Origin: Bryobacterales bacterium
Lineage (GTDB): Bacteria; Acidobacteriota; Terriglobia; Bryobacterales; UBA6623
Assembly: GCA_965218555.1 (NCBI GenBank)
Contig: OZ244625.1
Span: 247,492-311,491 of the forward strand
Length of the DNA: 64,000 bases
Direction: 5' to 3'
Part shown: positions 4,364-59,290 of the stretch, piece after piece
Position numbering within the stretch: the stretch's first letter is position 1
How the letters are laid out: every line of letters starts with the position of its first letter
The notes under the pieces: model-generated
The model's database searches: none
What the model was told of the DNA's origin: nothing
The model's input: the letters and a program-made list of their open reading frames with translations, nothing else
Position numbers and translations under genes: made by a program

Positions 4364-5539
4364 ATGGCCATCCCTCTCTCGTACAACTTCCGGAATCTGT
4401 TCGTCCGCAAGACGACCACCATCATGACGGCGCTGGGCATCGCCCTCTCGGTCGCCGTGCTGGTCGGAATCAGCGCGCTGGTCGGCGGCCTCAACGGCGC
4501 GCTCGCCGTGACGGGCGATTCGCTGCACGTGATTGTCATGCGCCAAGGCTCGACGGCCGAGCTCAATAGCACCGTCACCCGCGAGCAGTTCCAGAACCTC
4601 AAGTTCATCGAGGGCATCGCCGAAGAGAACGGTGAGCCGATGGCGTCGCTCGAAGTGCTCACGGTGTTCAATCTTCCGTTCCGGAGCAACCCCGACGAGG
4701 TCGCCAACGTGAATGTCCGCGGACTCCCTCCGATGGGCATCCGACTCCGCGAAACGGCAGGAACCCTGCAGATCTCCCGCGGCCGCTGGTTCGAGCACGG
4801 CAAGCGCGAAGTGGCGGTCGGCCGCGGCATCTTCGAGACGAACGAAGGAACCTCCATCGGTGACAAGCTCGACTTCGGCCGCGGCGAGTGGGAAGTCGTC
4901 GGCGTTTTCGACGCGGGCAAATCCGCCTACAACAGCGAAATCTGGGCCGACGCCAATCTGCTCACCATCGACCTCGGCCGCGGCGGCACGTTGAGCACCG
5001 CGTTACTCCGGGCGACAGACGAAGTAACCGCCGCGACACTGAAAAACCGCGTTGCCGACGACCAACGGCTCTTGCTCGAGGCGCTCAGCGAACGCGAGTA
5101 CTACGAGAAGCAGACCACATCCGGCCAACCAGTTCAGGTTCTGGGCGTGTTCGTCTCGATCATCATGGCCATCGGCAGCAGCTTTGCGGCAATGAACACG
5201 ATGTACGCCGCCGTCGCCCGGCGCGCTCGCGAAGTGGGCGTTCTACGGATGCTGGGCTTCTCACGCGGCAGCGTACTGCTCTCGTTCCTGTTGGAGTCGC
5301 TGCTGCTTTCCTTGTTGGGCGGGATGCTCGGTTGTCTGCTTGTTCTCCCTTTGGATGGCCTTGGCGGCCGGATCGGAAACTTCGTGACGTTCAGTATCAC
5401 CACCTTCGAGTTCGAGATCACGTCCAGCGCGCTATTGCTCGGCATGAGTTTCGCGGCGGTCATGGGTGTGCTGGGGGGAGTGCTCCCGGCGCGTGTGGCG
5501 GCGCGGCAGGAGATTCTCGGCTCGATGCGCAACGTATAG
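4364..5539 (+). CDS. ABC transporter permease, FtsX/MacB type (2 of 2)
   Basis: MAIPLSYNFRNLFVRKTTTIMTALGIALSVAVLV N-terminus and C-terminal RRAREVGVLRMLGFSRGSVL FtsX motif. The TAG stop at 5537-5539 is shared with the repeat insertion site. Confidence 0.85.
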   Translation: MAIPLSYNFRNLFVRKTTTIMTALGIALSVAVLVGISALVGGLNGALAVTGDSLHVIVMRQGSTAELNSTVTREQFQNLKFIEGIAEENGEPMASLEVLTVFNLPFRSNPDEVANVNVRGLPPMGIRLRETAGTLQISRGRWFEHGKREVAVGRGIFETNEGTSIGDKLDFGRGEWEVVGVFDAGKSAYNSEIWADANLLTIDLGRGGTLSTALLRATDEVTAATLKNRVADDQRLLLEALSEREYYEKQTTSGQPVQVLGVFVSIIMAIGSSFAAMNTMYAAVARRAREVGVLRMLGFSRGSVLLSFLLESLLLSLLGGMLGCLLVLPLDGLGGRIGNFVTFSITTFEFEITSSALLLGMSFAAVMGVLGGVLPARVAARQEILGSMRNV

Positions 5540-5718
5540 CCTACATTTCTCACCACCTGACGGCCGAAGCACGCGATACGACCGCCATGACTTCGTTGCG
5601 CTTGCTTGCCGTGCTCGATGTACTTTCAAGTACACCTGCGCGCGACAAGCGGCTCGCGTCTCGTCCTGCCGGCCCTCTCACCCACTTCGTCTCGCCACGT
5701 GGTAAGAAATACAGGCTA
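5537..5718 (+). mobile_element. family-1 MITE-like element, copy A (TA-flanked)
   Basis: TA|GCCTACATTTCTCACCAC...GTGGTAAGAAATACAGGC|TA. Same ~180-bp sequence as 22427, 46195, 48821 and 59104. Sits between permease 2 and the HlyD adaptor gene. Confidence 0.75.
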
Positions 5719-5810
5719 GTCGGCCTCACGGCTGAGGCGGGGCCGAAACCGCTACACTGCAAACTTGCGTCAGCGGCTGCAAACCCCGGCCGGCCGTCTC
5801 GACAAGATCA

Positions 5811-7160
5811 ATGGCTACGGACACCCGGCAAGTCGATCAGAGGCTCGCCAGCCTCAAGATCGACCGCTCACAACGCGGCGGCGAGCCGGCGCGCTGGGCG
5901 AAATGGTGGATCATCATCGGCGTTGTCGCCTTCGCCGCGCTCGGAATCTGGCGCTTCGGCTTCGCTGAGGCGGGGCTGATCGAGGTCGACACCATCAGAG
6001 TGACTCCGCAGACAGCAGGCTTGAGCGGTCAACAGGTCGTCCTCAACGCCGCCGGCTACGTCATCGCGCACTACAAGATTGAAGTCGCCTCCAAAGTTCT
6101 GGGCAAGGTAGCCTGGATCGGCGTCGAAAAAGGAGACACCGTCACCCAGGGGAACCCCATCGTACGCGTCGAGGATGACGAGTACCGCGCGAGGGTCCGT
6201 CAGACTGAAGGCAACCTCGCGGCCTTGCAGGCGCGGCTCGCGGAACTGGAAGCCGGCTCTCGCCCCGAGGAGATCCAACTTGCCCGTGCGAACCTCGAGG
6301 AAGCCAAAGCGGACCTCGAAAACGCCCGTGTCAACCTCGACCGCGTTCGCACTCTCCATGCGGAAGGCGTTGTGCCGCAGCAAGACCTGGATGACGCCAA
6401 AGCCCGCTACGACGCGCGGCAAGCCCGAGTGGCATCCTTGGATCGCGCCTACGAGCTGGTACGCATCGGTCCCCGCCAGGAAGAAATCGACTACGTGCGC
6501 GGTCAGGTCAAACAAGCCGAAGGCGAATTGGCGTACACCCTCACGCAGCTCGAAGCCACGGTGATTCGCGCGCCCGTGACGGGTACGATTCTCGAGAGAA
6601 ACGTCGAGGTGGGCGAGTTCATCACGACCAGCTTCGTGGGAGAGCGCGGAGCCAAGGGGTTCGTCGTGTCTTTGGCGGACCTGAACGACCTGCAGGTCGA
6701 GCTCGATATCAGCCAGGACGACTTCGCAAAGCTCACCATGGGCCAAAACGCCGTCGTCGCCACCGACGCCTTTCCCGATCGCAAATACCAGAGCACCATC
6801 GTCGAAATGTCGCCCGAAGCCGACCGCCAGAAGGCCACGGTTCAGGTGAAGGTGCAGATTCTGGAACCGGACTCCTTCTTGCGGCCCGAGATGAACGCCA
6901 ATGTCGCGTTCCTCGCCGAGGAGCAGCCCGCCGACGCCGCTCCCGCGCGCCCGACGATCACGATTCCCACGTCTGCCCTGGTGAACGGCGACAGTGTTTT
7001 CGTTGTTCACGACGGCCACACCGCCAAGCGCACGATCAGCGTGCGGAAGACGACGCCGCGCGGCGTGGAAATCGGCGGCGGTCTGGCCGGCGGCGAGGAC
7101 ATCATCGTCTCTCCGCCGCAGGATCTCCAGGACGGGGCCCCCATACGAGTGAGGCAGTGA
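5811..7160 (+). CDS. HlyD/MacA-type membrane fusion (periplasmic adaptor) protein
   Basis: N-terminal TM anchor [16 protein letters not shown], a long coiled coil ([35 protein letters not shown]) and a beta-rich C-terminus. Confidence 0.9.
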
Positions 7161-7900
7161 TGCGCGAAGAAACCGGTCAGGGACAACAAGCCGTCGAGCT
7201 CCGAGGCGTGGTCAAGGAGTACCGCCGCGACGAGTTCAGCGTGCTGGCGCTCAACAACGTTGACCTCGACATCCCGCGTAAGGATTTCCTGGCGCTGATG
7301 GGTCCCTCCGGATCCGGCAAGTCAACGATGCTCCATCTCATCGCCGGCATCGACAGACCGACGGCGGGCCGCCTGACCGTGCTCGGCGACGATATCGGCG
7401 GCATGGGTGAAAAGGAACTCGCCGCCTGGCGCAGCGAGCACATCGGCTACATCTTCCAGACGTTCAACCTCATCCCCGTCCTCACCGCCTTGGAAAACGT
7501 AGAACTGCCGCTGCTGCTGACCCGTCTCAGCAAGAAACAGCGCCTGGAGAACGCCAAGACGGCTCTCGATATCGTCGGATTGAGCGACCGCCTCGATCAT
7601 TACCCGCGGCAACTCTCCGGCGGACAGGAACAGCGCGTCGCTATCGCCCGCGCCATCGTCACGGACCCGGCGATCATTCTGGCCGACGAACCCACCGGCG
7701 ACCTCGACGCCGCTTCCGCCAAAGAAGCGCTGAACGCCCTCGCCCTGCTCAACGAGCAGCACGGCAAAACCATCGTCATCGTCACCCACGACCCCCACGC
7801 CGCCAAGTACGCCCGCAAGACCCGCTACATCGAAAAAGGAGACCTCCTCCCCGAAGGCCAACTCCCCGAAGACTGGTTCTCCACCCCCGCCCCAACCTGA
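7157..7900 (+). CDS. ABC transporter ATP-binding protein (MacB/LolD-like)
   Basis: Walker [10 protein letters not shown], signature LSGGQEQRV, Walker [13 protein letters not shown]. The start (GTG 7157 or ATG 7160) overlaps the adaptor stop. Confidence 0.92.
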
Positions 7901-11830: not shown

Positions 11831-11860
11831 GGCCGGCCCTCACGGGCCGGCCTTTTCCTT
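11831..11860 (+). terminator. rho-independent terminator after the receptor gene
   Basis: GGCCGGCCC-TCAC-GGGCCGGCC perfect 9-bp GC stem followed by TTTTCCTT, 28 nt after the stop codon. Confidence 0.6.
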
Positions 11861-12111
11861 GCGCTCGTCATCCGGCCGTGACGCGCGCTCTTCCGCGTTT
11901 GCCTCACGATCCAACAGGCATCTACAATCAGCCCACGGGTGCAGGTGGGTGTCTGCGCCATCCCGTCCCGGAGGACGCGCCCGCCGCTTACCGTCGGATA
12001 CGCAGTTGTGAGTCGTCCGGAGAAACCATCTCGCTTCGGTTCGGCATGCTTGACGGCCGCACTGGCTATCGTTTTGTCGTGGGGTTGCGCCGCCCCGACG
12101 TCGACGGAACA
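11844..12111 (+). repeat. 268-bp direct repeat, copy 1 (duplicated 5' region of the gene at 12975)
   Basis: Aligns base-for-base with 12811-13078 (constant offset 967). I counted roughly 20 substitutions and saw no indel. Confidence 0.9.
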
Positions 12112-12378: not shown

Positions 12379-12684
12379 ATGAGCGCTGAACTGATCGGCA
12401 TTCTGAGTGTGGGTGTTGCGCTGGCGGCACTCCACGTGGCAAGTATCAAGGGCTTGCGCGAGGACATGAACGCAAGCATCAAGGGCTTGCGCGAGGACAT
12501 GAACGCAAGCATCAAGGGCTTGCGCGAGGACATGAACGAAAGTATCAAGGGCTTGCGCGAGGACATGAAGGTCATGGAGAATCGCCTGGACTCCCTGGAG
12601 CAACGCATGGCGCGGCTGGAAGGCGTGCTGGACGGCTTGCGCGAGGCGCTCTTCGAGCGCGCCCGCGAGCGGGTGTCGGAATGA
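12379..12684 (+). CDS. small membrane-anchored coiled-coil protein with 4 x 11-aa tandem repeat
   Basis: 101 aa. Hydrophobic N-terminus AELIGILSVGVALAALHVA, then four repeats of SIKGLREDMNA (last repeat ends KV), then MENRLDSLEQRMARLEGVLDGLREAL. The weak RBS lowers confidence. Confidence 0.5.
   Translation: MSAELIGILSVGVALAALHVASIKGLREDMNASIKGLREDMNASIKGLREDMNESIKGLREDMKVMENRLDSLEQRMARLEGVLDGLREALFERARERVSE
12442..12573 (+). repeat. 33-bp x 4 perfect-register tandem repeat (in-frame inside ORF 12379-12684)
   Basis: Units at 12442, 12475, 12508 and 12541: AG(T/C)ATCAAGGGCTTGCGCGAGGACATGAA(CGCA/CGAA/GGTC). Confidence 0.95.
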
Positions 12685-12810
12685 CGCTTCTATCAAAGCG
12701 GCAATGGGTGTGTATCGGCCCCGATTCGGGTGTTCGATGTTCCCACAACCATACCTCCTATCTCTCTCCCCCCTGTGGTTATCCCTGTATTCCCGGAGGC
12801 CCCGCCTCGC

Positions 12811-13078
12811 GGGCCGGCCTTTTCCTTGCGCTCGTCCTTCGGCCGTAACGCGGACTCTTTCGTGTTTGCCTCACGATCCAACAGGCATCTACAATCAGCC
12901 CACGGGTGCAGGTGGGTGTCTGCGTCATCCCGTCTCGGAAGACGCACCTGCCGCTTCCCGTCGGATACGCAGTTGTGAGTCGTCCGGAGAAACCATCTCG
13001 CTTCGGCCCGGCATGCTCTACGGCCGCACTGGCTATCGTTTTGTCGTGGGGTTGCGCGGCCCCGACGTCGACGGAACA
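12811..13078 (+). repeat. 268-bp direct repeat, copy 2 (native 5' region of the gene at 12975)
   Basis: See copy 1. It includes the degenerate terminator-like hairpin, the leader and the first ~35 codons of the intact gene. Confidence 0.9.
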
Positions 13079-20854: not shown

Positions 20855-21053
20855 TGGTCATTGGGCGGCAGTCACCAGCCACGGGACACGAGACACGGGT
20901 CACTGCATAGAGCCAATGACCTTTAGCGGCGCTTTGCAGTAACCTAAACCTCTGCTGTTGCGCCCTTATGTGCTGAGGTCCGGGAGTGCGGGTAAAGCGG
21001 ACTCAGAGACGGCTGGGCGCTTATGATCAGCGCTGATTCGATTGTCAGTCTAG

Positions 21054-22426: not shown

Positions 22427-22609
22427 TAACCTGCATTTCTCACCACCCGACGGTCGAAGCACGCGATACGACCGCCATGATTTCGTTGCGCTTGCTTGCC
22501 GTGCTCAATGTACTCTCAAAGTACACCTGCGCGTGCCAAGCGCCTCGCGCCTCGTCCTGACCGCCCTCTCACGCACTTCGCCTCGCCACGTGGTGAGAAA
22601 TACAGGTTA
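22427..22609 (+). mobile_element. family-1 MITE-like element, copy B (TA-flanked)
   Basis: TA|ACCTGCATTTCTCACCAC...GTGGTGAGAAATACAGGT|TA. Its right end plus the TA forms the TAA stop (minus strand) of the gene at 22607-25087. Confidence 0.75.
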
Positions 22610-25087
22610 TATCCAGCGGCGTAGCCAAGGCAGCCAGCCTTTTCGTCCAACCAGTTCCAAGAGGCTCAGGAGCAAGGCCAGGGCAAGTAGGCCGGGCCAG
22701 AGGTTCATGTCGGCCGCGACCGAGCGGCCGCCCGCGTCGAAGGCGGCGGACAAGTCCGGTTGGAAGCGCCCTCCCGTCCAGGCCGCGATCTTCTGGAGCA
22801 GACGCTCATCCGAACCATAGTCGGTGAGTTCCGAGTTGGCGCGATGGCAGGCGATCTCGGGGAACGTTTCGACATGCGAGGCCGGGCGTATCCGGAACAG
22901 CCCGAAGCGATTCCCGATTGAAGCACGCGCTTCGAACTCCTTCTCGCCGACTCGTTTGAGGGGAATGGATCTGCGGAAATCCGAGGGGCCCAGCACGAAG
23001 AGGTCCGGCAGCGTCTCAGGCACGGCGAAGGAGTTGCGCTCGGTCACCCGGTAGCGGGCGACGATCTCGTCCGATGAGCTTTCATACTGCGCGGACGTTT
23101 CGGTGGCGGGCGAGCGGGGCAGCAGGTCGCGCAACAGGTTGGTCCAGAAGCGGTCGAATGCCGGATCTCCGATCCAGTTGACCGCCCATCGCGCTTTGGC
23201 GTCAGAGGCGAATACGGCCGAGCGGCCCAGTCCGTATTGCCAGCGCAGCAGCAGGGGGTCCTTCTCGTCTTCCTCGCCGATGGTGAGGAGCGTTTCCGCG
23301 TCGTCCTTGGCTTCGAACTTGACCCAGCCGAGCAGTGGGCCGGCGGCGTCAAACGAGACGCCTTCGAGGATCTCGGCTTCTCCTACAGCTTCAGGCACCA
23401 CGGAAGTTTCCATGATCGAGGAGCCGGTATGCTCCATGACGTCGCGGAGGACGATTTGTTCCAGGCTCGATACATCGATGAGAAAGTACGAACGGCCCTC
23501 GGCGGTCGAGGCGACGCGCTCGAGATAGGCACGATTCACATCCTGCCCCAGGCCAACGGTCGAGATCGTGATTTGCAGCTTGGCAGCTTCCCGCGCCAGC
23601 GCAATGCTGTCACCTTCCTCGGAAATGCCGTCGGTCAATAGCAGGATGTGCTTGTAGACGGAATCCGTTTCACGGATCTGATTGAAGGCTTCGTGGAGCG
23701 CCGGCGCGATCTGAGTGCCGCCGTCAGCGATGATGCTGGAAATAAGTCGCTTCAGCACATCCGGTTCGTTGTTCGTACGCAGCGGGACGGCCCATTGGAA
23801 GGAGTTGTCGAAGACAAGCACGCCGACACGATCAATCGGGCGAAGGTTTGCCACAACGCCGGTGGCGGACTGCCGGGCGAGTTGCATTTTCTTGCCCTCC
23901 ATCGACGACGATTTGTCGACGACGAGAACCACCGAGGTGCCTTCGGGCGTTCTTGGCGGGGCCAAACGTGCAGGCAGCGTTTCCCACAGCGGGTCGTCGC
24001 GGTCGTCAGGCAGTTCAACGTAGAGGTTCTTCTCGCCGGCGATGAAGAGGAAACCACCTCCGCTCCGTACAAAATCGGCAAGCCGGGATTTCTGCGAAGG
24101 TGACCAGACTTCGACATCAAAGTTGTTAACGACGGCGAGAGCGTATGGGTCGAGCGGCCCGTCGATGACACCGGCTGAACGCTCCACTTCGAAACCCGCC
24201 GCACCGAGCACCTGCCGTAGGTGGATCTCGGTGTCAGTGACGTCACCGGAGATGAGCAGAGCGCGGGGCCGCTTGAACGTGATGGCGTGCTCGAACTGAA
24301 CAGCGCCCATATCGGGGGTAGTAATGCGGCCGATCACGGACGTCGCTCCCTCGGTTTGAACGCGGGCTTGCGCACGAACGACATTGACGCCGGCGGCAAG
24401 CTGGATATCGGAACGTCCGATCACGCGGTCTTCCACCATGAGCTGGACGGTTGCCGCGCCGGCGCGCTCCGTCACCACTTCCAATACGATGGGCACGTTC
24501 TCGCCCGCGAACGCCTGTACGGGAGCGAAGGTGTTTGTAATGCGCAGTTCGGGGGGCGTCTGCCCGGCCAGGGCAAACGTATCGATGGGGATCCCCAAAG
24601 AGCGCGCCTGGTAGGCAGCGCGCTCGATGGATCCGAAGGTCCCCTTGCCATCGGAGATCAGCGCGATTCGCGGCACGAGATCGACCGGGAATGTCCCGAT
24701 GGCGTTGCGGACGGCGACTTCGAGGTTCGTAGCGGCGGCCCGTGATGCGTCCGCCTCGGATGCCCTGCGTGCGAAGTGCGTGGTCTCATCGAACGGGACG
24801 ACTTGGAGCTGATGGCGTCCCCGGGCGTCTCGGAGTGCCGAAACCATCTCTTCCGTGCGGGTTGCGTCGACCTCCGAAATACTGCCCGACCGGTCGACCA
24901 GAGCGGTGAGCGCCACCTTGGTCTCGAAAACACGGAGGCGCGGCTGGCTGAGAGCAAGCGCGACCAGCGCGAACGACACGGCTTTCAGGACGAGTGCGCC
25001 GCGGCGGTACGTGCGCCGCCATTCCCAGGCAAGCCAGAACAACGGCAGGAGCAGCAGCGTCAGAACCCACGTCGACTCGAAAGTCAC
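22607..25087 (-). CDS. BatA-N-terminal-domain / von Willebrand factor A domain membrane protein
   Basis: MTFESTWVLTLLLLPLFWLAWEWRR (aerotolerance-regulator N-domain). MIDAS-type VVLVVDKSSSMEG plus a second degenerate LVDRSGSISE. Confidence 0.85.
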   Translation of the reverse strand: MTFESTWVLTLLLLPLFWLAWEWRRTYRRGALVLKAVSFALVALALSQPRLRVFETKVALTALVDRSGSISEVDATRTEEMVSALRDARGRHQLQVVPFDETTHFARRASEADASRAAATNLEVAVRNAIGTFPVDLVPRIALISDGKGTFGSIERAAYQARSLGIPIDTFALAGQTPPELRITNTFAPVQAFAGENVPIVLEVVTERAGAATVQLMVEDRVIGRSDIQLAAGVNVVRAQARVQTEGATSVIGRITTPDMGAVQFEHAITFKRPRALLISGDVTDTEIHLRQVLGAAGFEVERSAGVIDGPLDPYALAVVNNFDVEVWSPSQKSRLADFVRSGGGFLFIAGEKNLYVELPDDRDDPLWETLPARLAPPRTPEGTSVVLVVDKSSSMEGKKMQLARQSATGVVANLRPIDRVGVLVFDNSFQWAVPLRTNNEPDVLKRLISSIIADGGTQIAPALHEAFNQIRETDSVYKHILLLTDGISEEGDSIALAREAAKLQITISTVGLGQDVNRAYLERVASTAEGRSYFLIDVSSLEQIVLRDVMEHTGSSIMETSVVPEAVGEAEILEGVSFDAAGPLLGWVKFEAKDDAETLLTIGEEDEKDPLLLRWQYGLGRSAVFASDAKARWAVNWIGDPAFDRFWTNLLRDLLPRSPATETSAQYESSSDEIVARYRVTERNSFAVPETLPDLFVLGPSDFRRSIPLKRVGEKEFEARASIGNRFGLFRIRPASHVETFPEIACHRANSELTDYGSDERLLQKIAAWTGGRFQPDLSAAFDAGGRSVAADMNLWPGLLALALLLSLLELVGRKGWLPWLRRWI

Positions 25088-29858: not shown

Positions 29859-30405
29859 AGATCTCCCGGATGATCTGGCGCACCCGCTCGGGGTCGCTGG
29901 CGGCGCGCTTGGCGTCCTTAGCCTTGGCGGCGGACTCCTCGGCGGCCTGGCGCTTGGACTCGCGATCACAGCGGAGGGCGATCTCTCTGGAACGCTCCAG
30001 GCGCTCCGCCACGAGGCTGATCCTGGCGACGCTCTCGATGACGCCGGGCATCGACTCATCGTCGATCTCGAGATCCTGGAGCCGGAAGCTGAGGTCGAAC
30101 ATCAGCCTACGCATCATCGCGGTGACGAGGTGGCCGAACTGCCCGTCGGGCACCGAGCCGAGCTTGTCGGCCCAGACCTCGGTGACCTGCCGTGATTGGA
30201 GCACCTGCTCGCAGGCCGCCCGTATCCGCTGGTCGTAGCGGTTGACGGCCTGCCGGCTGACACGCTCAGCCAGCCCCAGCTCGTCGAGCAGGGCGTTGGT
30301 CCGCTCCGTCGCCTCGGTCTGTGTGATGGCGGGGTCGCGCAACCAGCCGTGGAGCGCCTCGCGGACGTCGCTCGGGAGCCGCTCGATTCTGCTGGTCTGT
30401 GACAT
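29848..30405 (-). CDS. Mu gp27-like (DUF3486) small terminase subunit
   Basis: 185 aa. SRIERLPSDVREALHGWLRDPAITQTEATERTNALLDELGL...VSRQAVNRYDQRI matches the gp27-family N-terminal HTH region. 11-nt overlap with the TerL start. Confidence 0.65.
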   Translation of the reverse strand: MSQTSRIERLPSDVREALHGWLRDPAITQTEATERTNALLDELGLAERVSRQAVNRYDQRIRAACEQVLQSRQVTEVWADKLGSVPDGQFGHLVTAMMRRLMFDLSFRLQDLEIDDESMPGVIESVARISLVAERLERSREIALRCDRESKRQAAEESAAKAKDAKRAASDPERVRQIIREIYGV

Positions 30406-30431
30406 TTTTTCTACTCAGACCTCAAAAGGCC

Positions 30432-39316: not shown

Positions 39317-39323
39317 GCGCCTT

Positions 39324-41894: not shown

Positions 41895-42044
41895 GGTTCC
41901 TCTCCTTGGTCCCGTCTGGATTTTCTCCTCTGCCGGATCGCGGCTGGCGGCGAGAATCCGCTCATCTCGAATTTCCCATCGATTCTTTCCTTTCGCCAAG
42001 CCGATATTCTATTGTTTCGGAGCGGAAGCCGACAGCGGACGGAC

Positions 42045-45000
42045 ATGCCCGGTCGATTATTCACTCAATATTTCCTCACCGACGGCACAAAGACGACCGT
42101 CGAGTGGAATGCTTCCCTCGCCCAACCCGAGGCCTTCGCCCGGTTCAAAGACGACCTCCGCCGCCGGTACGAGACCGTGAAGGGGTTCCAAGACCCGAAT
42201 GAAGCGGTGACCGAGCAAAAGCTGATCCTACCCATTCTGAAACTCCTGGGATGGATCGACTCCCTGCCCCAGCAAGGCGCCTCTCGAAACGAGGACATCC
42301 CCGACCATCTTCTGTTCGAGGACGCCGAGTCGGCGAGGCGGGCTGCTGCAAAGAAAATGCCCGGGGATCGCTACCGGGATGCTTTGGCGGTGGAAGAGAG
42401 CAAGCGGTTCGGCTTCGCTCTGGATGCCCGCGATCAGGACGGCAAGACGCCGGCCCGCACACCCCACGGCCAGATCCTCAGATACCTCTCGACGGCCGAG
42501 ATCGAGTCTGACAACCGCATCCGATGGGGAATACTGACGAATGGCAAGGTTTGGCGCCTTTACGACCACCATGCCCGGCCTCGCGCCAGCGGCTACTTTG
42601 AAGCAGACCTGACGGAGCTGCTCAAGCCGGGCCAGGAAGATCGTCTTCGTCTCTTCCACCTGCTGTTTCGCCGCGATTCCTTCACCCTCAGACAAGGCGC
42701 AACCACCACGTTCCTGGAACACGCTTTGGCGGAGGGGAGACGCTATGAGAGACAGGTCGCCCAGGATCTGTCGGGCGTCGTCTTCGAGAGCGTCTTCCCC
42801 AAACTCGTGGAGGCTCTGGCGAATGCCACAGGGGAAAACCTGCCCCGGGTGCGCCAATCCGCCCTGATCTTCCTCTATCGACTGCTCTTCGTGCTTTACG
42901 CCGAGGACCGGGACCTGCTGCCGGTCAATGACCGGCGTTACGACGACTACGGCTTGCGCAAACGCGTGCGGGACGACATTGCCCGCAGGATGGCGGACCG
43001 CGACGTCTACTCGTCCATGGCCGCCAACTACTATGACCGCCTTGTCAATCTTTTCAAAATCATCGACAAGGGCGATCCGTCCATCGGCCTGCCGCCCTAC
43101 AACGGCGGCCTGTTCGCGCCGGAAGCCGCGCCCCTGCTGGAACAGGCGCGCCTGCCCGACGCCGTCATCGCTCCCCTCATCTACGACCTCAGCCACACGC
43201 AGGAAAAGGACGGAGGCGGGAGGCGCTTCGTCAACTACCGCGACATGTCGGTGCAGCAACTCGGCTCGATTTACGAGCGTCTCCTGGAGCAGGAGCCGGT
43301 CCGCGACGATGAGGGTAAGATCTCCATCAGGCCCAATCCCTATGCCCGCAAGGACAGCGGCAGCTTCTTCACGCCCCAGGAGCTGGTGGATCTGATCGTC
43401 GACCGAACCTTGAAGCCGCTGGCGGAAGAACGTCTCAAAGCGTTCGAAGACAAAGCCGCCGAGCTCAAGAGCGACCGCCGGCCCCGGGCTCAGCGGGAAG
43501 TCGAACTGCTCAAGCTGGACCCGGCCGAGGCGGTCCTGAATCTGAAGGTCCTGGACCCGGCCATGGGAAGCGGACATTTCTGGTCACCGCAGTGGACTTC
43601 CTTTCCGACTATGTCGCTGAGTTGATCGAGTACGTCCCCGTGGTCCCGGAGTGGCTTGACGGCGGCTATGTTTCACCCCTGGTGAAACGTGTGGCGGCGG
43701 TTCGCAGCGAGATCCTCCGACGGGCCGAAGAATCGAACTGGGTCCTCGACGAGGCCCAACTCAGCGACCAGGCCATTATTCGCCGCATGGTGCTCAAGCG
43801 GTGCATCTACGGAGTGGACAAGAATCCCCTGACCGTCGAGCTGGCCAAGGTGTCGCTGTGGCTGCACAGCTTCACCGTGGGCGCGCCATTGTCCTTTCTG
43901 GACCACCACCTGCGCTCCGGTGATTCGCTGATCGGCCTTCGCGTCGGGGAGGCCATTCGGGAACTCCAGCGGCTCGGCGGCATCTTTACCGGCAGCGCCA
44001 TTGCGGGGGCGGAGGCGGCTACGGACGGCATGCTGCTCATCGAGGAGATGTCCGACGCCGACGTGGCCGAGGTGCGGGCGTCGGTTGCCTTGTTTCAAGG
44101 CGTCGAGGAGACGACGGCGGAACTCCGCGGGCTGCTCGATTTTCTTTGCGGCCTGGGTTGGCTGACCGCCGGCATGAAGCAGAAAGCGCGCGCCGCTTTC
44201 GAGACTCCTCTCTTCGCGACACTCGGTCGGCACCTCGACCATGCCTACCCGCTGTTGGCCAGGGGTCCGGGCAGCGTCGCCGCCATGCCTGCTGACGAGA
44301 ACTCTACCTGGACGGCGTTCCAAGGGCTGTGGTCAGACGCCCGGTCCATCGCCGACCGGGAGGGCTTCCTGCATTGGGAGGCCGCCTTTCCGGGAGTGTG
44401 GCGCTCTTGGAATGACATCCGTCCGGAAGGCGGTTTCGACGCTGTGATCGGCAATCCCCCCTGGGACCGGATCAAGCTTCAGGAGGTCGAGTGGTTCGCC
44501 ACTCGCAAGCGAGAACTGGCTCTGGCGCCGACGGCGGCCGCACGGCGCGCCGCCATCAGGCTTCTTCGCGAACAGGGGGACCCTCTTGCAGCCGAGTTCG
44601 ATGCCGCCAAGGAGCAGTCCGAGAGCCTGAGCCGGATGGTGCGGTCCTGTGGCGACTACCCGCTGCTGGGCGGCGGCGACATCAACCTGTACTCGCTGTT
44701 CGTGGAGCGGGCCATGAGCCTGATCAAGCCGGACGGCTTTGTCGGCCTGCTGACGCCGTCGGGCATTTGCGCCGACAAGACCGCGGCCCGTTTTTTCAAG
44801 TCCGTTTCCACTACCGGACGAGTAGGCGGCGTGTTCGATTTTGAAAACCGCCGCCTTGGGACCAATCTGCCACCCTTCTTCCCGGACATCGACTCACGAT
44901 TCAAGTTCTGCGCCCTCGTGTTCGGCGGAGAGAAACGGCAATTCGACCAGACCGAGTGCGCTTTCTTCCTGCACGACACGAAAACGATCCGCGACAAGGA

Positions 45001-46096
45001 CCGTTGCTTTCCGTTGACGCCCGCCGACTTCGCCCGCGTGAACCCGAACACCGGCACCGCACCCGTTTTCCGCACCCGCCGGGCCGCCGAGATCACCCGC
45101 CGTATCTATGAAAGGCACCCGGTGCTGGTGGATCGCTCAGCGGATGAGGAACGCCGCGTCTACCCGGTGAAGTACGTTCGCATGTTCGACATGACCAACG
45201 ACTCCGGCCTGTTCCGCACGCGCGAGGAGCTGGAGGAAAAGGAAGGCGCGTATCCCATCGGCGGTAACCGCTTCTCCAGTCCGTCCGGAGAGTGGGTGCC
45301 GCTTTACGAAGGCAAGATGGTGCAGGCCTTCGATCATCGCGCCGCCAGCATCGTCGTCAACCCCGAGAACCAGCACCGCCCCGCGCAGCCCAAACCGGCC
45401 ACTCTTGAGCAGCACAAGGATCCGAACTGGCTGTCCGATCCACAATTCTGGGTTTTGGCGAAGGAAACAGGGTTTTCCGTCATGCCCTTCATCCTTGGCT
45501 TCAAACACGTGACCGCGCCTACCAACGTCCGCTCAATGATCGCAGCGTTGATCCCCGGCGTTGGCGCAGGAAACTCCCTCCCATTGTTGATGGGATCGAA
45601 CGGACTGACAGCCAGTGCTGTTGCGGCTCTAGTTGCCAACCTCAATTCTGTACCGCTCGATTATGTCGTGCGGCAGAAAGTTCAAGGACAAAACCTCAAC
45701 TGGTTCATTATCGAGCAACTCCCTGTCGTCCCGCCCGACCGCTACGAGGCCGTCCGCTTCGGCCCTAAGACGGCCGGTCAGATTGTCCGAGACGCAGTCC
45801 TTAAGTTGACCTACACGGCCCACGACATGACGCCCTTCGCCCGCGCCCTCGGCTACCACGGACCGCCGTTCACCTGGGACGATGAGCAACGCCGCCACCT
45901 GCGCGCCCGGCTCGACGCTCTGTACTTCCACCTCTACGGTCTCTCCCGTGAGGACGTAAGCTACGTGCTGGACACATTCCCGATCGTTCGCCGGGAAGAC
46001 GAAGCCGAGTTCGGCCGCTACCGCACCCGCGACCTCATTCTGGCCTACATGAACGCCCTCGCCGCCGGGGATGCGACGACGGTCGTGGCAATGTAG
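42045..46096 (+). pseudogene. type IIG restriction-modification enzyme (N-terminal PD-ExK nuclease + gamma-class N6-adenine methylase + C-terminal specificity region), split by a frameshift at about 43580
   Basis: Nuclease block IPDHLLF...ALAVEESK...WGILTNGKVWRLY. Methylase motif I VLDPAMGSGHF|LVTAVDF is broken between the two ORFs (a C appears to be missing from CATTTC-CTGGTC). Motif IV VIGNPPWDRIK. The C-terminal family blocks are PLYEGKMVQAFDHR and YGLSREDVSYVLDTFPIV. Confidence 0.8.
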
Positions 46097-46194
46097 CCCC
46101 TCCGGGGACCACCTCAAGAAGCGTGAGCCTCCTCGTCGGCCTCCTCTTCGTCTTCGGAACCTCATATCCAAACTGACCACGAACCACCAGCCCC

Positions 46195-46387
46195 TAACCT
46201 GCATTTCTCACCACCCGACGGTCGAAACACGCGATACGACCGCCATGACTTCGCTTTTCCTTCGCAGCGCTTGCTTGCCGTGCTCGATGTACTCTCAAGT
46301 ACACCTGCGCGCGCCAAGCGGCTCGCGTCTCGTCCTGACGGCCCTCTCACGCACTTCGCCTCGCCACGTGGTGAGAAATGCAGGCTA
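46195..46387 (+). mobile_element. family-1 MITE-like element, copy C (TA-flanked, ~14-bp internal insertion)
   Basis: TA|ACCTGCATTTCTCACCAC...GTGGTGAGAAATGCAGGC|TA. It has extra GCTTTTCCTTCGCA relative to the other copies. Confidence 0.75.
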
Positions 46388-46784
46388 ACCACTGTCTTGA
46401 CCACCGCTCGTCCAAGCTACACATCACGAGACTCGGATCAAGAGCCACTGACTACGGACACGGTGGGAGAGGGAGCGCGGAGGAGTCATGCGTTCACTTT
46501 GAGTTGATGCTCATAGGCGAAATCCCGGACGTTGGCGCTTTCCCCCGCATGTTCCATCGTCATGGAGGCGAGGTTTCCCTTGCTCATCCAGATCCGGGTA
46601 AATGTTCTCAGACGCGTCGCGGGTCTCGGCGGCCCGCTCCGAGGTGAACTCAATCAGTGCGGTGGCGGTATTTTCAAACTAGTGGGTCTGCATTCCCTTT
46701 TCGTTACTCTCGGTGCGTTCCCCGCAGCCGTGGCTTAGCAAGACGGACGGAGCACCCTCTTTCCGGGACGTGTTGCGCAGTTTT

Positions 46785-47294
46785 TTAGATACCGGCATTT
46801 CCGCCTGCGCCGGGACTGACGGGCGCCGGCTCACGGATCGAGTCTTGAATGTTAGGATACGCTCGCACGCTGCTGCTACGGTCAATTGCCGCCACGAATG
46901 AAGCAGGCGTCCTAGCTGCGAAGCGGGCAATCCGGTGTCTTCCCTTCACCAATAGCTCGGCGATATCCGACCCCGTCGCGTTTTTTGCCCGAATCACGAT
47001 GACCCGCGCTGCATTCCTCATCATGGATTCGAGTTCAGCAGTTCGGTAACGGATGTTCTTGTCTTTCGTGAGCGCAACCCAACCCATCCGTCCAACAAGC
47101 GCAATCCAATCTTCGTCCGGCGCGTCCGGCGGAAGGTGCTCGTCGTGCACCTCAACCTTCATCCCTGCCGAACGAAGCCTGTCTGCGATGATGTGCTTTC
47201 CAAGGTTGCGATCCAGGAAAAGGATGGGCTCTTCACGCTGCCAGTCTGAGCTCACATCGGATCGCTTCTTCGATTTCCGCTGCGTCGCGCTCAT
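46785..47294 (-). CDS. PIN-like (DUF5615-type) toxin candidate
   Basis: ILFLDRNLGKHIIADRLRSAGMKVEVHDEHLPPDAPDEDWIALVGRMGWVALTKDKNIRY has the acidic D...D...D/T-K-D layout of DUF5615/PIN-like partners of DUF433 antitoxins. The start is uncertain (ATG 47294 or GTG 47255). Both overlap the upstream gene. Confidence 0.65.
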   Translation of the reverse strand: MSATQRKSKKRSDVSSDWQREEPILFLDRNLGKHIIADRLRSAGMKVEVHDEHLPPDAPDEDWIALVGRMGWVALTKDKNIRYRTAELESMMRNAARVIVIRAKNATGSDIAELLVKGRHRIARFAARTPASFVAAIDRSSSVRAYPNIQDSIREPAPVSPGAGGNAGI

Positions 47295-47925
47295 AGTCTT
47301 GGGCTAACTGGCTGACCGACTCACCAGCTTTGCAGCGCTCGGCTATAACCTGGGTGGCGAGTCCGGTTCCGGCGATGACAGGTCGACCGGCGGATAGCTT
47401 CGGGTCGATGACGACCATCGCCGGCGCGTCTTCCATGGCGGTTCGGGTAAACGGATAGAGCTTGACGGGTACGCCTTGGGGGTCACGCTCGATCCGACGC
47501 AGGGCGGCGCTGATGATTTCTCGCATGGCCATCTGATCCCCTTGACTGATATTGATCAGTTGCCCATATTGCTCAATGAACAGATCGAGGCCATCTGTTT
47601 CCAGCTTGCAACTGATCAACGGATGCCGCCGGTCAGGCGCATCCAGAACATTCTCCACCAGGTACTCGATGGCCTTTCGGACCTTTGGCATCGATACGAC
47701 ATGCTTGCGCCGGATGGCGGCGAGAACATGCAGTTCTGTGAGATCAAGGAATGAAAGCAGCGTCGGGGAGAGCTGGGACGCCACAATAAGTGGCTCGTAG
47801 TCGCCTTGGCCCACCGACCAGTACCGAACGGTCGCCGCCGGCACGGTGAGGTAATGCGCCGCTTCCGAGATCGTGTAGGCGGGTAGCTCGCGGAGATCGT
47901 CCGTTTGCGCTCGGCGTCCGAACAT
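47233..47925 (-). CDS. DUF433-domain antitoxin candidate with N-terminal HTH extension
   Basis: ATG 47925 is preceded by AGGGGAGGAAACCTG. The N-terminus YTISEAAHYLTVPAATVRYW is HTH-like. The C-terminus VIDPKLSAGRPVIAGTGLATQVIAERCKAGESVSQLAQDYERDAAEIEEAI is the DUF433 core. Confidence 0.75.
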   Translation of the reverse strand: MFGRRAQTDDLRELPAYTISEAAHYLTVPAATVRYWSVGQGDYEPLIVASQLSPTLLSFLDLTELHVLAAIRRKHVVSMPKVRKAIEYLVENVLDAPDRRHPLISCKLETDGLDLFIEQYGQLINISQGDQMAMREIISAALRRIERDPQGVPVKLYPFTRTAMEDAPAMVVIDPKLSAGRPVIAGTGLATQVIAERCKAGESVSQLAQDYERDAAEIEEAIRCELRLAA

Positions 47926-48493
47926 CAGGTTTCCTCCCCTGTACAAATCACGATCTTCTGAGTCAGAAACTAGTATAGCGGGCTCCTCACCCTCGATCCA
48001 TACGGTTTGAACAACTCCGTCTATGAATGGCTTCACACTCCGCCGGAAGTCGATCCATCTCTTCGGGATTGGCTCCGAGCACTACAGGTGCAATCCTTCC
48101 TTGCGATCGACAAAACTCATGATCGGTACAAGGGAAGACAGGATCGGGGGAGTCATTGCTGCTTGGCATATGAATCTGGCCGGGCTGGTCTGTTCGCGGC
48201 GGGGGCGTGCCAGCGCGCCTCTGTCAACACACTTTTTGCACACTGGCAAGGGCGCAAACGTCGAAGTAAACCATCAGGGAACGTTATACTCGGGTGATAC
48301 GCTGGTTCCTGATGGATACACTGCGTGCGAACGTCGAATCAGACCATCAAGGTGCGCTATACTGAGGCGCCGAGATGGGGCGGAGAGAACCACTACAGCG
48401 AGAGAATCCCCCTTCTCCCAGAGGGGCTTCCGCCCCCCGCCGTCTGGTGGTCGGCTTTTCCCGGTTGACGGGTCCACGGGCTCCCAGGATCTG

Positions 48494-48823
48494 ATGACAG
48501 GCTATCGAGAGTCCGGCTACCCGTTGATTCAGGCTCGCGGGCAGGAAGGACGCTTCGAATACCAGGGGCTGTCATTGCGGCTCGGGTTGTTTCACGACGA
48601 AGAGGGCTGGTACATCGGCGTACACATGTCTTCCGGGCGCATGTGCGCTCGGCTCAGCTTGGAGCACGCCCGCAGCCAAAAAGAGGCAAATGACATGTTG
48701 AGGTACGGGTTCTTCCTGCGAACCGAGGAAGTGCCCGAACTTGTGGAACATCTGCAGTCGATCGGTCTGCTTTCCGTACCAACGCCGGCGGCCTTGGAAG
48801 ACCCGGTCGAGAACCCCGTCTAG
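48494..48823 (+). CDS. hypothetical protein
   Basis: Only the last ~110 codons of the 266-aa ORF-track call look protein-like (MTGYRESGYPLIQARGQEGRFEYQGLSLRLGLFHDEEGWYIGVHM...). No motif recognised. The TAG stop coincides with the TA target of MITE copy D. Confidence 0.3.
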   Translation: MTGYRESGYPLIQARGQEGRFEYQGLSLRLGLFHDEEGWYIGVHMSSGRMCARLSLEHARSQKEANDMLRYGFFLRTEEVPELVEHLQSIGLLSVPTPAALEDPVENPV

Positions 48824-49001
48824 CCTGCATATCTCACCACCTGACGGGGGAAGCACGCGATAAGACCGCCATGACTTCGTTGCGCTTGCTGGCCGTGCTC
48901 GACGTACGGTCAAGTACACCTGCGCGCGCCAAGCGCCTCGCGCCTCGTCCTGACGGCCCTCTCACGCACTTCGTTTCCCCACGTGGTGAGAAATGCAGGC
49001 T
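48821..49001 (+). mobile_element. family-1 MITE-like element, copy D (TA-flanked)
   Basis: TA|GCCTGCATATCTCACCAC...GTGGTGAGAAATGCAGGC|TA, 60 nt upstream of the acyl-CoA synthetase start. Confidence 0.75.
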
Positions 49002-49060: not shown

Positions 49061-50695
49061 TTGTACAATGCCCACGCCATGAAGAGCTATGTCGGGGGAC
49101 CGAACGGCGTGCTCATCGAGAAGACCATCGATCAGGTCTTCCGCCGCACCGTAGCTCGAGACCCCGACCACGAAGCGCTGGTGTCGCGGCACCAGGCCCT
49201 GCGGCTCAGCTACGGCGAACTGTCCAGAGAGGTGTCCCGCACGGCCGCCGGCCTGTGGGGCCTGGGCATCCGGCCGGGCGACCGCGTCGGGATGTGGGCC
49301 TATTCGTGCGCGGAATGGGTGTACCTGCAACTGTCCACGGCCCGTATCGGTGCGGTGCTGGTCAACGTCAACCCGAACTACCGCGCGGACGACCTGCGCT
49401 ACATCCTCGATCGGTCACGCATGAAAGCGATCTTCCTCCACGAAAAGGACAACCGCGCGGACTATCGGGACGTCCTCAATCAGGCGCGTGCGGGCGCAGA
49501 GTTGCCGCTTGCGCACGCGGTGTTTCTGGGGACGAGTTCCTGGGACGAAATGATCGCCGCCGGGGAGCGGCCTGCACCGCCCGAACTGGACCCGAACGAC
49601 GTCGTCAACATTCAATACACTTCCGGGACCACGGGCAAACCCAAGGGGGTGATGCTCACTCACCGGAACCTGCTGAACAACGCCCACCTCGTCGGCAGCT
49701 CGATGCATTGGAGCGCTGCGGATCGTCTGTGCCTCGCCGTACCGATGTATCACTGCTTCGGGTGCGTGATGGGTTCGCTGGCATGCGTTGTTTTCGGCGC
49801 GACCCTGGTGATGCCCTCGGCGGTGTTCAATCCGGCGGCCGTCATCGAGACGATCGACCGGGAGCGCTGCACGACGATCTACGGCGTGCCGACGATGTTC
49901 ATCGCAGAGATGGAGCATCCCAAGTTTCCCGAGCACGACATGAGTTCGCTGCGCACGGGCATCATGGCGGGCGCGCCGTGCCCGGTCGAGCTGATGAAGC
50001 GCATCGTGAGCGAAATGCACTGCCCGGAGATGACCATCGCCTACGGGCAGACGGAGGCTTCGCCGGTGATCACGCAATCATCGACGACCGACAGTCTGGC
50101 GGTGCGCGTCTCGACCGTCGGACGCGTGCTGCCCGAGACGGAGGTGAAGATCATCGATCGGGAGACCGGCGAAACGGTCGAGGCGGGCGCGCAAGGAGAA
50201 CTCTGCACGCGCGGCTACCTCGTCATGAAGGGTTACGACCAGGACCCGGAAGGGACGGCCCGCGCCATCGATGCGGAAGGATGGCTGCATACCGGCGACT
50301 TGGCGACGATGCGGGAAGACGGAAACTTCCGCATTACGGGCCGGCTCAAAGAGATGATCATCCGCGGCGGCGAGAACATCTATCCGCGGGAAATCGAAGA
50401 GTTCCTGCACCAGCACCCCAAGGTGGCGGATGTGTACGTTGTCGGCCTGCCGGATGAGCGGCTCGGGGAACGGGTGCTGGCCTGGGTGCGCGTTCAACCC
50501 GGCGAGACCGCCACGGAGGAAGAAATCCGCGCCTATTGCCGCGGGCGCATCGCGCACTTCAAGATCCCGGAGTACATCCGGTTTGTCGACGAGTTCCCGA
50601 TGACCGTGACGGGAAAGGTGCAGAAGTTCATCATCCGCGAGAGAGAGATCGAGCTGCGGAAGTTGGCCGGCGTGGCTCAGGCGGAGACGGCTTAG
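49061..50695 (+). CDS. AMP-dependent acyl-CoA synthetase/ligase
   Basis: AMP-binding signature IQYTSGTTGKPKGVMLTHRN, YGQTEASP, GWLHTGDLA and IIRGGENIYPREIEE, with the terminal PMTVTGKVQKF lysine motif. Confidence 0.92.
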   Translation: MYNAHAMKSYVGGPNGVLIEKTIDQVFRRTVARDPDHEALVSRHQALRLSYGELSREVSRTAAGLWGLGIRPGDRVGMWAYSCAEWVYLQLSTARIGAVLVNVNPNYRADDLRYILDRSRMKAIFLHEKDNRADYRDVLNQARAGAELPLAHAVFLGTSSWDEMIAAGERPAPPELDPNDVVNIQYTSGTTGKPKGVMLTHRNLLNNAHLVGSSMHWSAADRLCLAVPMYHCFGCVMGSLACVVFGATLVMPSAVFNPAAVIETIDRERCTTIYGVPTMFIAEMEHPKFPEHDMSSLRTGIMAGAPCPVELMKRIVSEMHCPEMTIAYGQTEASPVITQSSTTDSLAVRVSTVGRVLPETEVKIIDRETGETVEAGAQGELCTRGYLVMKGYDQDPEGTARAIDAEGWLHTGDLATMREDGNFRITGRLKEMIIRGGENIYPREIEEFLHQHPKVADVYVVGLPDERLGERVLAWVRVQPGETATEEEIRAYCRGRIAHFKIPEYIRFVDEFPMTVTGKVQKFIIREREIELRKLAGVAQAETA

Positions 50696-51712: not shown

Positions 51713-51752
51713 TAGCCTGCGTATCTCCCCACATGGGGAGATACGCAGGCTA
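51713..51752. repeat. family-1 mini element: the two terminal inverted repeats only, forming a perfect 17-bp hairpin (TA-flanked)
   Basis: TA|GCCTGCGTATCTCCCC-ACAT-GGGGAGATACGCAGGC|TA, 28 nt after the stop of the gene ending at 51685. Confidence 0.8.
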
Positions 51753-58218: not shown

Positions 58219-58226
58219 CAGGAGCG

Positions 58227-59024
58227 TCAGCGCAGCATCTGCTCGGCGCCCGCTCTCATGAACAGAAAGTCGCTGCCGAGCGTCATGAACTTTGCGCCCT
58301 TGGCGTGCCACTCTCGCACTTCCTCCATCGACCCCGATGTCATGCCGAACGGCATGTCGTGCGCTTTCGCGGCTTCCAGGATGCGGTCACACGAGGCAAG
58401 CACTTCCGGTGTCCGGGCGAACGTCGTCCACGAATCCGCGCCGGCGGCGGCGCCTGACGGGCCCGTGATCGACTGACCGGGTTCCAGCATCGAGAAGGCA
58501 AGGTCGTTCGGGCCGATGAACACGGCATCCACCCCGGGCACGGTGAGCATTTCGTCGATTTGCTCGACTCCGGTATGGCTTTCGACTTGGATGATGAGGG
58601 TCGCCCTGCGATCGGCATCGGCCATGTACTCCGTCGCCGCAAAGCTATAGCGGGCAGCCCGAAACGGACCAAAGCTACGCTTGCCCTTCGGCGGAAACTT
58701 GGCGGCGTCAACGGCCCGGCGGGCATCGGCGACCGAGTTCACCATCGGCACGAGAACCGCATCGACTCCTTGATCGAAGAGCCAGTTGATGTTGTGATAG
58801 TCGTTCTGCGCGGCGCGGACAACGGGCGTTACCGGCGAGTTGGCGAATGCGCCCAGCAACGCCGGGAAGTCCGACTGGGTAATTTCGGAATGCTGCAAGT
58901 CAAGGATCAGAAAATCCAGCCCCAGGTGGGTCATCACCTCGGCGGAGGCATAGCTGGAAAACGAGCACCAGCCGCCGATCAGGTCGGACTCGTTCCGAAG
59001 GCGTTCAACAAAGGGTTCTCGCAT
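58227..59024 (-). CDS. HpcH/HpaI-family aldolase
   Basis: GGWCSFSSYASAEVMTHLGLDFLILDLQHS, PVVRAAQND, LVPMVNS, IQVESHTGV and VDAVFIGPNDL. Confidence 0.85.
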   Translation of the reverse strand: MREPFVERLRNESDLIGGWCSFSSYASAEVMTHLGLDFLILDLQHSEITQSDFPALLGAFANSPVTPVVRAAQNDYHNINWLFDQGVDAVLVPMVNSVADARRAVDAAKFPPKGKRSFGPFRAARYSFAATEYMADADRRATLIIQVESHTGVEQIDEMLTVPGVDAVFIGPNDLAFSMLEPGQSITGPSGAAAGADSWTTFARTPEVLASCDRILEAAKAHDMPFGMTSGSMEEVREWHAKGAKFMTLGSDFLFMRAGAEQMLR

Positions 59025-59103
59025 AGCGCCTATTGTAAATTGATCAGGGATCAGGCGCCGCCGGCGGAACTTTTGCTCCCCGGCCGGAGTGCAGGATGAG
59101 GGC

Positions 59104-59290
59104 TAGCCTGCCTATCTCACCACCTGACGGGGGGGGGAGCACGCGATAGGACCGCCATGACTTCGTTGCGCTTGCTTGCCGTGCTCGATGTAGGGTCAAG
59201 TACACACCTGCGCGCGCCAAGCGGCCCGCGCCTCGTCCTGCCGGCCCTCTCACGCACTTCGCCTCCCCACGTGGTGAGATATGCAGGCTC
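59104..59290 (+). mobile_element. family-1 MITE-like element, copy E (TA / TC flanks)
   Basis: TA|GCCTGCCTATCTCACCAC...GTGGTGAGATATGCAGGC|TC. Sits in the divergent intergenic region 35 nt upstream of ATG 59325. Confidence 0.75.

Follow-up and report, generated by a model that had tools for sequence, protein, structure and literature searches.

The 64,000-nucleotide stretch of Bryobacterales contig OZ244625.1 analysed here (positions 247,492 to 311,491, hereafter the window) carries a non-coding repeat of about 180 bp, which is present as five full copies, designated c1 to c5, and one collapsed copy. An earlier note, made from the sequence alone, had described these as a mobile family, and motif matches and alignment place all six copies at the positions that it had given (Table 1). 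The full copies align over ~181 columns and are 82–90% identical among themselves and 86–91% identical to the family consensus. Each is bounded by terminal inverted repeats (TIRs), as reported, although the length of 18–19 bp assigned to them needs adjustment, as the TIRs span 17–19 nt and share an invariant core of 17 nt (CCTGCATTTCTCACCAC). Similarly, the extra segment within c3, put at ~14 bp, measures 11 nt. The terminal motif has 11 matches in the window, all of them at copy ends, where shuffled sequence gives 0.04. Five of the copies are flanked by TA on both sides and the sixth, c5, by TA and TC, in agreement with the earlier description. The element is small (<300 bp) and has no Pfam-bearing open reading frame (ORF) inside; in the consensus, three frames out of six are open, yet without a gene-like signal. 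These repeats are very probably copies of a non-autonomous DNA transposon, a miniature inverted-repeat transposable element (MITE), with an orientation that is set by chromosomal region and, we infer, coupled to replication.

The interior of the element is the long imperfect palindrome that had been noted, a diverged foldback in which 68 of ~97 aligned arm positions are Watson-Crick. The two strands are not equivalent, with a predicted DNA fold of -53.2 kcal/mol (z -6.9) for the + strand of the consensus and -68.9 kcal/mol (z -9.3) for the - strand, a difference of ~16 kcal/mol; the G·T asymmetry of the two arms, 8 to 3, is by estimate not significant. When a profile built from the window copies was run with nhmmer, each of the five scored 193–208 bits as + and 31–42 bits as -, such that the common orientation of these palindromic copies is unambiguous, and the earlier statement that all five point the same way stands. 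The 40 bp copy is the outcome expected from deletion of a palindrome's centre, and presumably arose by such a central deletion.

Table 1. Positions of the MITE copies, of orthologous insertion sites lacking a copy in the window, and of associated repeats and insertion sequences. Positions are those of the window unless a locus is named.
Feature	Position	Strand	Remarks
c1	5537..5718	+	full-length, 182 bp; TAG stop of ORF 4364-5539 (FtsX/MacB-type permease) contributes the left TA
c2	22427..22609	+	full-length, 183 bp; right end provides the TAA stop of the minus-strand VWA gene 22607-25087
c3	46195..46387	+	full-length with 11-nt internal insertion; flanks CTAA / CTAA
c4	48821..49001	+	full-length, 181 bp; TAG stop of ORF 48023-48823 contributes the left TA; flanks CTAG / CTAG
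c5	59104..59290	+	most diverged full copy, 86.5% identity to consensus; flanks CTAG / CTCG
Collapsed copy	51713..51752	undefined (.)	40 bp; left and right TIRs fused into a near-perfect palindrome
Empty site	1537..1539	+	TAG stop of ORF 1021-1539 in GC-TAG-TC; full copy exactly there in OZ242366.1
Empty site	50693..50695	+	TAG stop of ORF 49061-50695 (T-TAG-G); filled in OZ242366.1 (L081 7514-7696)
Unfilled site	30294..30299	+	TTGG in the window, TTAG...CTAG in filled OZ241991.1 (L098 2799-2981)
Heptamer arrays in the window	28181-28208, 30633-30660, 30753-30766	+
Heptamer array in the window	20877-20897	-
Heptamer arrays elsewhere	many loci, e.g. L002 and L011 3879-4980
IS110-family element	L070 6167-7602; also L015, L023 (two copies), L079, L093		all in OZ242366.1; none in the window

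To place these copies within a larger family, 8-kb blocks of related genomes were gathered with a 37-nt right-end pattern, and nhmmer was run on those blocks and the window; L-numbers denote the sampled loci. Among the matches listed there are at least 111 blocks with the right-end pattern, nearly all from metagenome-assembled genomes (MAGs) labelled Bryobacterales (Acidobacteriota), and the hosts include the complete chromosomes OZ242366.1 and OZ241991.1 as well as bins whose names suggest marine sponges. In ~0.95 Mb of such blocks and the window we obtained at least 339 non-redundant hits, so that the possibility raised earlier, that the repeat has no further copies, does not apply. At least 179 of these are full copies with a modal length of 180–183 bp, and the remainder include variants of ~206 bp, ~275 bp and 156–179 bp (shortened forms span 142–178 bp) together with many fragments. 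The core CCTGCATTTCTCACCAC is found at the two ends in 134 and 132 of 169 copies, and short-read MAG contigs frequently end within a copy. One 3-kb contig labelled Rhodothermales (L085, JAAXGO010000110.1) has a copy and three genes orthologous to those of the Bryobacterales block L002, and is probably a mis-binned contig rather than a case of spread into another phylum. No match to the element was found in a plasmid collection, viral contigs gave only a chance 17-mer in a low-GC phage, and an exact-sequence lookup of the window proteins found none on record. Full-text searches turned up no account of an element of this kind in Acidobacteria, whether from sponges or not, and the claim that the family is undescribed therefore seems true.

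The element is mobile, as proven by empty and filled orthologous sites and by nested insertions, and these bear out its earlier description as a mobile, TIR-bounded, TA-flanked, non-coding, multi-copy sequence. Empty TA sites at orthologous loci, which the note had proposed to look for, were found in the window (1537 and 50693) and, for c1 and c2, in relatives. At site 1537 the alignment is clean, with the window reading AAGCTAGTCGAG and L113 reading AAGCTAG[CCTGC...GCAAG]CTAGTCGAG; the copy that fills the 50693 site in L081 is near-consensus and lies in the - orientation. Further clean empty/filled pairs are provided by L098, L043 and L077 against relatives. The c1 insertion is common to L113–L116, where it has the same G-to-A TIR variant and the flanking protein is 94–96% identical, and its site is empty in the 76%-identical L117, which has C-TAG-G, a stop codon, in its place. 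Likewise, c2 is common to L118 (flanking protein 90% identical) and its site is empty in L119 and L120 (83% identical), in which the gene stops with TAG at the same position. The orthologous site of c4 in L081, with ~92% flanking DNA identity, is occupied by a ~245-bp variant with decayed flanks, indicating that c4 is ancestral. Copies are also nested at an internal C-TA-G of a host copy with precise TA duplication, as at L018 6546-6728, for which the host is uninterrupted in L052, and others lie within other repeat families.

These findings bear on the alternative that the repeats are conserved structured RNAs or regulatory hairpins, ancestral at their loci, which we consider so improbable as to be nearly negligible. 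The strong predicted hairpins on both strands agree with it, as do the retention of c1, c2 and c4 at orthologous loci and a few compensated pairs (alignment columns 82/98, CG in 91 copies and UA in 6; columns 30/151, AU in 95 and GC in 3). However, relatives are empty with an intact TAG exactly at the insertion points, so that the mark of an ancestral structure given in the note, the same sequence at orthologous loci without TA flanks, does not apply; moreover, copies are nested in copies and their orientation does not depend on the genes beside them. The element showed no promoter-like or terminator-like motif, and the covariation term in the copy alignment is only -0.6 kcal/mol, being minimal because the copies are too similar to be informative. 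Across the whole window only a tRNA reaches the Rfam gathering threshold; none of the repeats does, and there is thus no covariance-model hit to a known RNA family such as the note had thought would count against a MITE. The best match over c4, to plant MIR1437, scores 39.6 bits against a threshold of 168 and reflects a generic long-hairpin resemblance.

The copies in the window are old, not young. Those at c1, c2 and c4 predate genome splits, and the window copies are 92% identical to the consensus, so that the earlier suggestion of recent activity or amplification fails for this region; the family has long been active in sponge-type Bryobacterales, with no recent gain among the tested copies of the window lineage. 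The recent burst lies instead in OZ242366.1 and OZ241991.1, where copies have a mean identity of 97% to the consensus and some reach 100%. The window is collinear with ~680-728 kb of OZ242366.1 at ~92% DNA identity and is ~75% identical to OZ241991.1; judged via the window, the two chromosomes appear widely diverged, with genes ~25% different at the DNA level. Despite this divergence, copy-to-copy identity is 94.4% between them and 94.3% within a genome, and the source element has therefore either been exchanged between lineages or been strongly conserved. Such similarity is suggestive of horizontal transfer of this element between symbionts that reside together.

Flanks of 169 copies define the target as YTAR, mostly CTAG. 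On the left side CTAG occurs 79 times, CTAA 24 and TTAG 23, and on the right side the counts are 85, 33 and 9; TA is present on both sides in 130 copies, and the base preceding the right TA is C in 83%. Nearly a quarter of the full copies (42/179, 23%) are positioned exactly at the stop of a predicted gene, c1, c2 and c4 among them. The first base after TA is G or A, such that a TAG or TAA stop is rebuilt upon insertion, and as stop codons both contain the target and are rebuilt, gene ends would, judging from the sequence, be safe landing sites. The length of the duplication is harder to read, since TA and CTAG are palindromic and most sites cannot separate duplications of 2, 3 or 4 bp. Within one subfamily, however, the bases after the left and right TA co-vary (78 GG, 25 AA, 15 GA and 11 AG; odds ratio ~12), so that the first base of the element behaves as though it were target-derived, and the duplication is probably TAR (3 bp). 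The clean empty/filled pairs are compatible with duplication of either TA or TAR, and three of them (TTAG...CTAG twice, GTAA...TTAA once) exclude a regular 4-bp duplication.

With a YTAR target and a probable TAR duplication, the step from TA flanks to IS630/Tc1-mariner parentage taken in the earlier note is unsafe, and no IS630-family or IS5-type transposase sharing the TIRs was found among the sampled loci. IS630 itself prefers a CTAG target, which is the commonest flank here. IS5-family and PIF/Harbinger-derived MITEs make YTAR or TNA duplications (ISfinder groupings), and the YTAR target and probable 3-bp TAR duplication resemble these, although no IS5-type transposase with these ends was seen and the three pairs exclude 4 bp. 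A parent of IS5 type thus appears equally possible, fitting as well as IS630, and IS630 parentage is not established. The model behind the earlier proposal is RUP of Streptococcus pneumoniae, a MITE with a TA target that is mobilised by IS630-Spn1 (PMC2229807). The TA target is shared, but RUP TIRs match a resident IS630, whereas no such partner was found here, and the flanks point to TAR and not to TA alone.

In form, the element most closely resembles the Correia/NEMIS elements of Neisseria, which are 100–160 bp long with TIRs of 24–26 bp, TA at both ends and a stem-loop, and are present in hundreds of mostly intergenic copies (Delihas 2008, PMC2229807). Both are non-coding, with TIRs, TA ends, a long stem-loop and hundreds of copies, and both are defined by filled and empty sites. 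They differ in their phylum and have unrelated sequences; that article (PMC2229807) makes no mention of strict local co-orientation among Correia elements, and the integration host factor (IHF) motifs, promoter motifs and RNase III sites of Correia elements were not found in the Bryobacterales element. Among the general features of bacterial MITEs, small size with multiple copies, TIRs, and a target duplication with filled and empty sites are present. The family is real and apparently undescribed, and is ordinary in kind apart from a strict regional strand polarity.

As the earlier note had said, there is no cognate transposase in the window. The only multi-copy protein in the sampled DNA is a 357-aa IS110-family transposase (PF01548 + PF02371, DEDD), encoded by a 1.44 kb insertion sequence (IS) that is always inserted at the same point of the MITE's apex loop (...GTACTGTTCAA / IS / GTACGCC...). 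At ~10 sampled sites its gene is always antisense to the + strand of the element, and six complete composites of 1623–1624 bp were found, with several others cut by block edges. These 1.6-kb composites were ruled out as an autonomous parent, as what they contain is an IS110-family IS that has ends of its own and that parasitises the MITE without driving it. REP-targeting IS110-family elements (IS621 type; REP, repetitive extragenic palindrome) are bridge-RNA guided, and the insertion in the apex loop, at a fixed position and in constant relative orientation in OZ242366.1, looks like behaviour of that kind. The comparison concerns the parasite and not the mobility of the MITE, however, and no Rfam model matched the non-coding ends of the IS. 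Other candidate parents were also rejected. The 3.65-kb composite in L040 consists of a copy into which an IS5/IS1182-like IS, its TIRs unrelated, has inserted, together with low-GC cargo; the ORFs beside shortened left arms (L088, L018 and L065) yielded no transposase, and an HTH_28/HTH_32 protein in L117 lacks matching ends. At L065 2683-4090, two small ORFs lie between left-end and right-end fragments with a full copy nested between them; by their sequence these look like a hicA/hicB toxin-antitoxin pair, and the composite may carry them as cargo.

The co-orientation of the copies, which the earlier note had regarded as unexpected for random insertion, is real and extends beyond the window. 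Adjacent copies agree in 113 of 115 pairs, with both exceptions being one element called on both strands, and 61 of the 62 blocks with at least two complete copies are uniform, compared with 20 expected. All pairs less than 20 kb apart agree, and agreement falls off from 20 to 100 kb. Fragments follow the orientation of their block with much the same strictness as full copies do, with only ~4 of 90 opposite, and most of the few opposite hits within uniform blocks come from fragmentary or degenerate copies (L015, L014, L081, L113–L116). The rule is regional and very strong, but not absolute. A terminator or 3' untranslated region role, in which orientation is set by the flanking gene, was ruled out by the four classes of gene context, which are about equally represented (32, 29, 25 and 36). 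Copying from a local donor was likewise ruled out as the cause, as neighbouring copies are no more alike (93.95% identical) than distant ones (94.3%). We know of no MITE for which near-uniform orientation of neighbours regardless of genes has been reported. Published surveys describe an orientation bias linked to replication as strong in IS200, IS91 and IS110 but as rare or mixed in IS630 and IS5 (Gomez et al. 2014, PMC3971601), and the regional rule seen here is far stricter than the biases reported for either of the latter.

Orientation is associated with a strand asymmetry in base composition at silent sites, one that holds irrespective of gene direction. The A/T skew at third codon positions is -0.071 in genes co-oriented with the element and -0.160 in those anti-oriented to it (p=2.6e-11 per gene), and the correspondingly higher A/(A+T) in co-oriented genes is seen in both chromosomes. 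The association holds at the block level (p=5e-6), where 0 of 20,000 permutations reached the observed value, is present in all eight four-fold codon families, and persists among high-confidence genes. Of all gene bases, ~54% lie in genes anti-oriented to the element. Together with the silent-site T excess this is a weak indicator that the - strand of the element, the better hairpin, is leading-strand sequence.

A second abundant repeat, consisting of tandem heptamers (CGTGWYT)n followed by GAAAA (for example GGCCGTGATTCGTGTTTCGTGTCTCGTGAAAA), follows the same polarity. Outside recognised copies, heptamer arrays are co-oriented with the MITE in 167 cases and opposed in 5, and the 8-mer CGTGATTC is split 218 to 16 by orientation (|z| 13; null maximum 6). 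Some of the arrays make up the inside of the ~275-bp MITE variant, and because part of them thus belongs to composite variants the count of co-oriented arrays is not fully independent. Two homologous intergenic elements of ~135 nt with heptamer-type ends and a conserved core (GCTCAAGAARGAAACGCCKGACRGCCGGTGAA) lie at 28150-28310 and 30420-30560 of the window, in a repeat-dense intergenic region, and have no Rfam hit at the gathering threshold.

A plausible mechanism is that a transposase of IS630-like or IS5-like type, supplied in trans, binds the ends and inserts the element at YTAR, mostly CTAG, duplicating TA or TAR. Orientation is set by the chromosomal region and not by neighbouring genes or a nearby donor copy, and our best guess is that the direction of replication governs either insertion or retention, in which case the strand forming the more stable hairpin (the - strand) would lie on the strand poorer in A than T at silent sites. 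It is possible, although doubtful, that this is a TIR-bounded, duplication-making MITE whose insertion orientation is dictated by the replication fork, through a strand-specific and possibly hairpin- or single-stranded DNA (ssDNA)-assisted step in a DDE-like transposition.

A strand polarity that is near-absolute and ignores gene direction is a hallmark of ssDNA transposons, and we therefore considered whether the element itself moves as ssDNA, either as an IS200/IS605-derived palindrome-associated transposable element (PATE) or as a REPIN, a REP-derived hairpin element, with its REP-associated tyrosine transposase (RAYT, of the HUH Y1 type). Its hairpin would form on the lagging-strand template and be pasted 3' of (Y)TA, and the apparent TA duplication would be the left target together with the element's own ...CTA right end. 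The C that precedes the right TA in 83% of copies resembles an element-encoded cleavage site, the ~16 kcal/mol strand difference in predicted hairpin stability fits, and single-TA empty sites are also compatible. Polarity independent of gene direction and hairpin-forming ends are indeed shared with IS200/IS605 PATEs and REPIN-RAYT systems (PMC3971601), but those lack the TIRs and target duplications that are both present here. The ends are true inverted repeats of 17–19 nt, not subterminal hairpins or self-palindromic REPs with a GTAG head, and the co-variation of the first base described above is predicted by a staggered-cut duplication and not by peel-and-paste. Moreover, no Y1/RAYT gene was found among the multi-copy or flanking proteins of the sampled loci. 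We regard movement as ssDNA as quite improbable.

Another explanation is that insertion is orientation-neutral, as for an ordinary DDE MITE, and that disfavoured copies are later lost or inverted neighbours selected against. Loss could begin with a hairpin on the lagging-strand template and be completed by SbcCD-type cleavage or by slippage, and both the 40-bp TIR-TIR remnant and the many 142–178-bp variants look like palindromes that have lost their centre. The difference in predicted hairpin stability between the strands and the mostly fragmentary or degenerate nature of the rare opposite hits in uniform blocks are also as would be anticipated. Against this, the fragments obey the orientation of their block too, and young near-consensus copies already follow the rule; avoidance of inverted neighbours explains neither the link to A/T at third positions nor the co-oriented heptamer arrays. 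Later loss is in our view unlikely, although less so than movement as ssDNA.

Several observations weigh against the reading that we favour, of a non-autonomous DNA transposon with replication-coupled orientation. For the transposon itself, no transposase with matching ends was found in ~1.07 Mb of loci and the window, a biased sample drawn from among the matches listed and not from whole chromosomes, and the flank statistics are not fully coherent, in that R-R co-variation favours TAR, Y-Y co-variation hints at 4 bp, and three pairs contradict 4 bp. For the coupling to replication, GC skew has no association with element orientation either per block or per gene, and tRNA orientation as a replication proxy is split 4 to 3 among 7 tRNAs. 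A simple two-replichore pattern is not seen on either complete chromosome (OZ242366.1 or OZ241991.1). Instead, each has a majority orientation and not two equal replichores, and orientation forms a patchwork of domains, switching at least 16 times among the 41 blocks sampled from OZ241991.1. Lineage-specific insertions in blocks collinear with the window point both ways (L081 and L118), and in L118 two intact copies at a distance of 2.2 kb from each other are oppositely oriented.

Other repeats and segmental differences were observed in the same DNA. A different TIR-bounded element, with ends GCAGTCCGTGGCAAAAGTC ... GACTTTTGCCACGGACTGC, occupies the intergenic region at 39322-39728 of the window, and the orthologous spacer in OZ242366.1 (L081 2258-2685) has unrelated repeats instead. 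Direct repeats of 58 nt, 91% identical, at 34252-34309 and 37474-37531 enclose a ~3.3-kb segment that the syntenic OZ242366.1 block lacks, an indel mediated by, or creating, the repeats. A segment of ~6.4 kb (~41910-48327) that includes c3 is without a counterpart in the collinear OZ242366.1 block L081. The window also has a 33-nt tandem repeat of four units at 12439-12602, within ORF 12379-12684, and a pair of 281-nt direct repeats, 92% identical, at 11831-12111 and 12798-13078 with a spacing of 967 nt. At L018 3452-3546 (OZ242366.1), Aragorn calls a tRNA-SeC in a repeat-dense intergenic region between MITE fragments, which may be a false call on a repeat hairpin.

At the least, these data add one more MITE family, from a phylum and a habitat with hardly any such elements on record, and one that accounts for many contig breaks in short-read MAGs of these bacteria. 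Landing on stop codons with the stop rebuilt shows how a GC-rich genome tolerates hundreds of insertions. If orientation is coupled to replication, the fork-coupled transposition pathway would be one that has not been described for IS630- or IS5-type elements, and the family would provide a natural experiment in the sensing of fork direction by a TIR element. The elements would then also be built-in markers of strand polarity, recording many recent rearrangements in the genomes of these symbionts.

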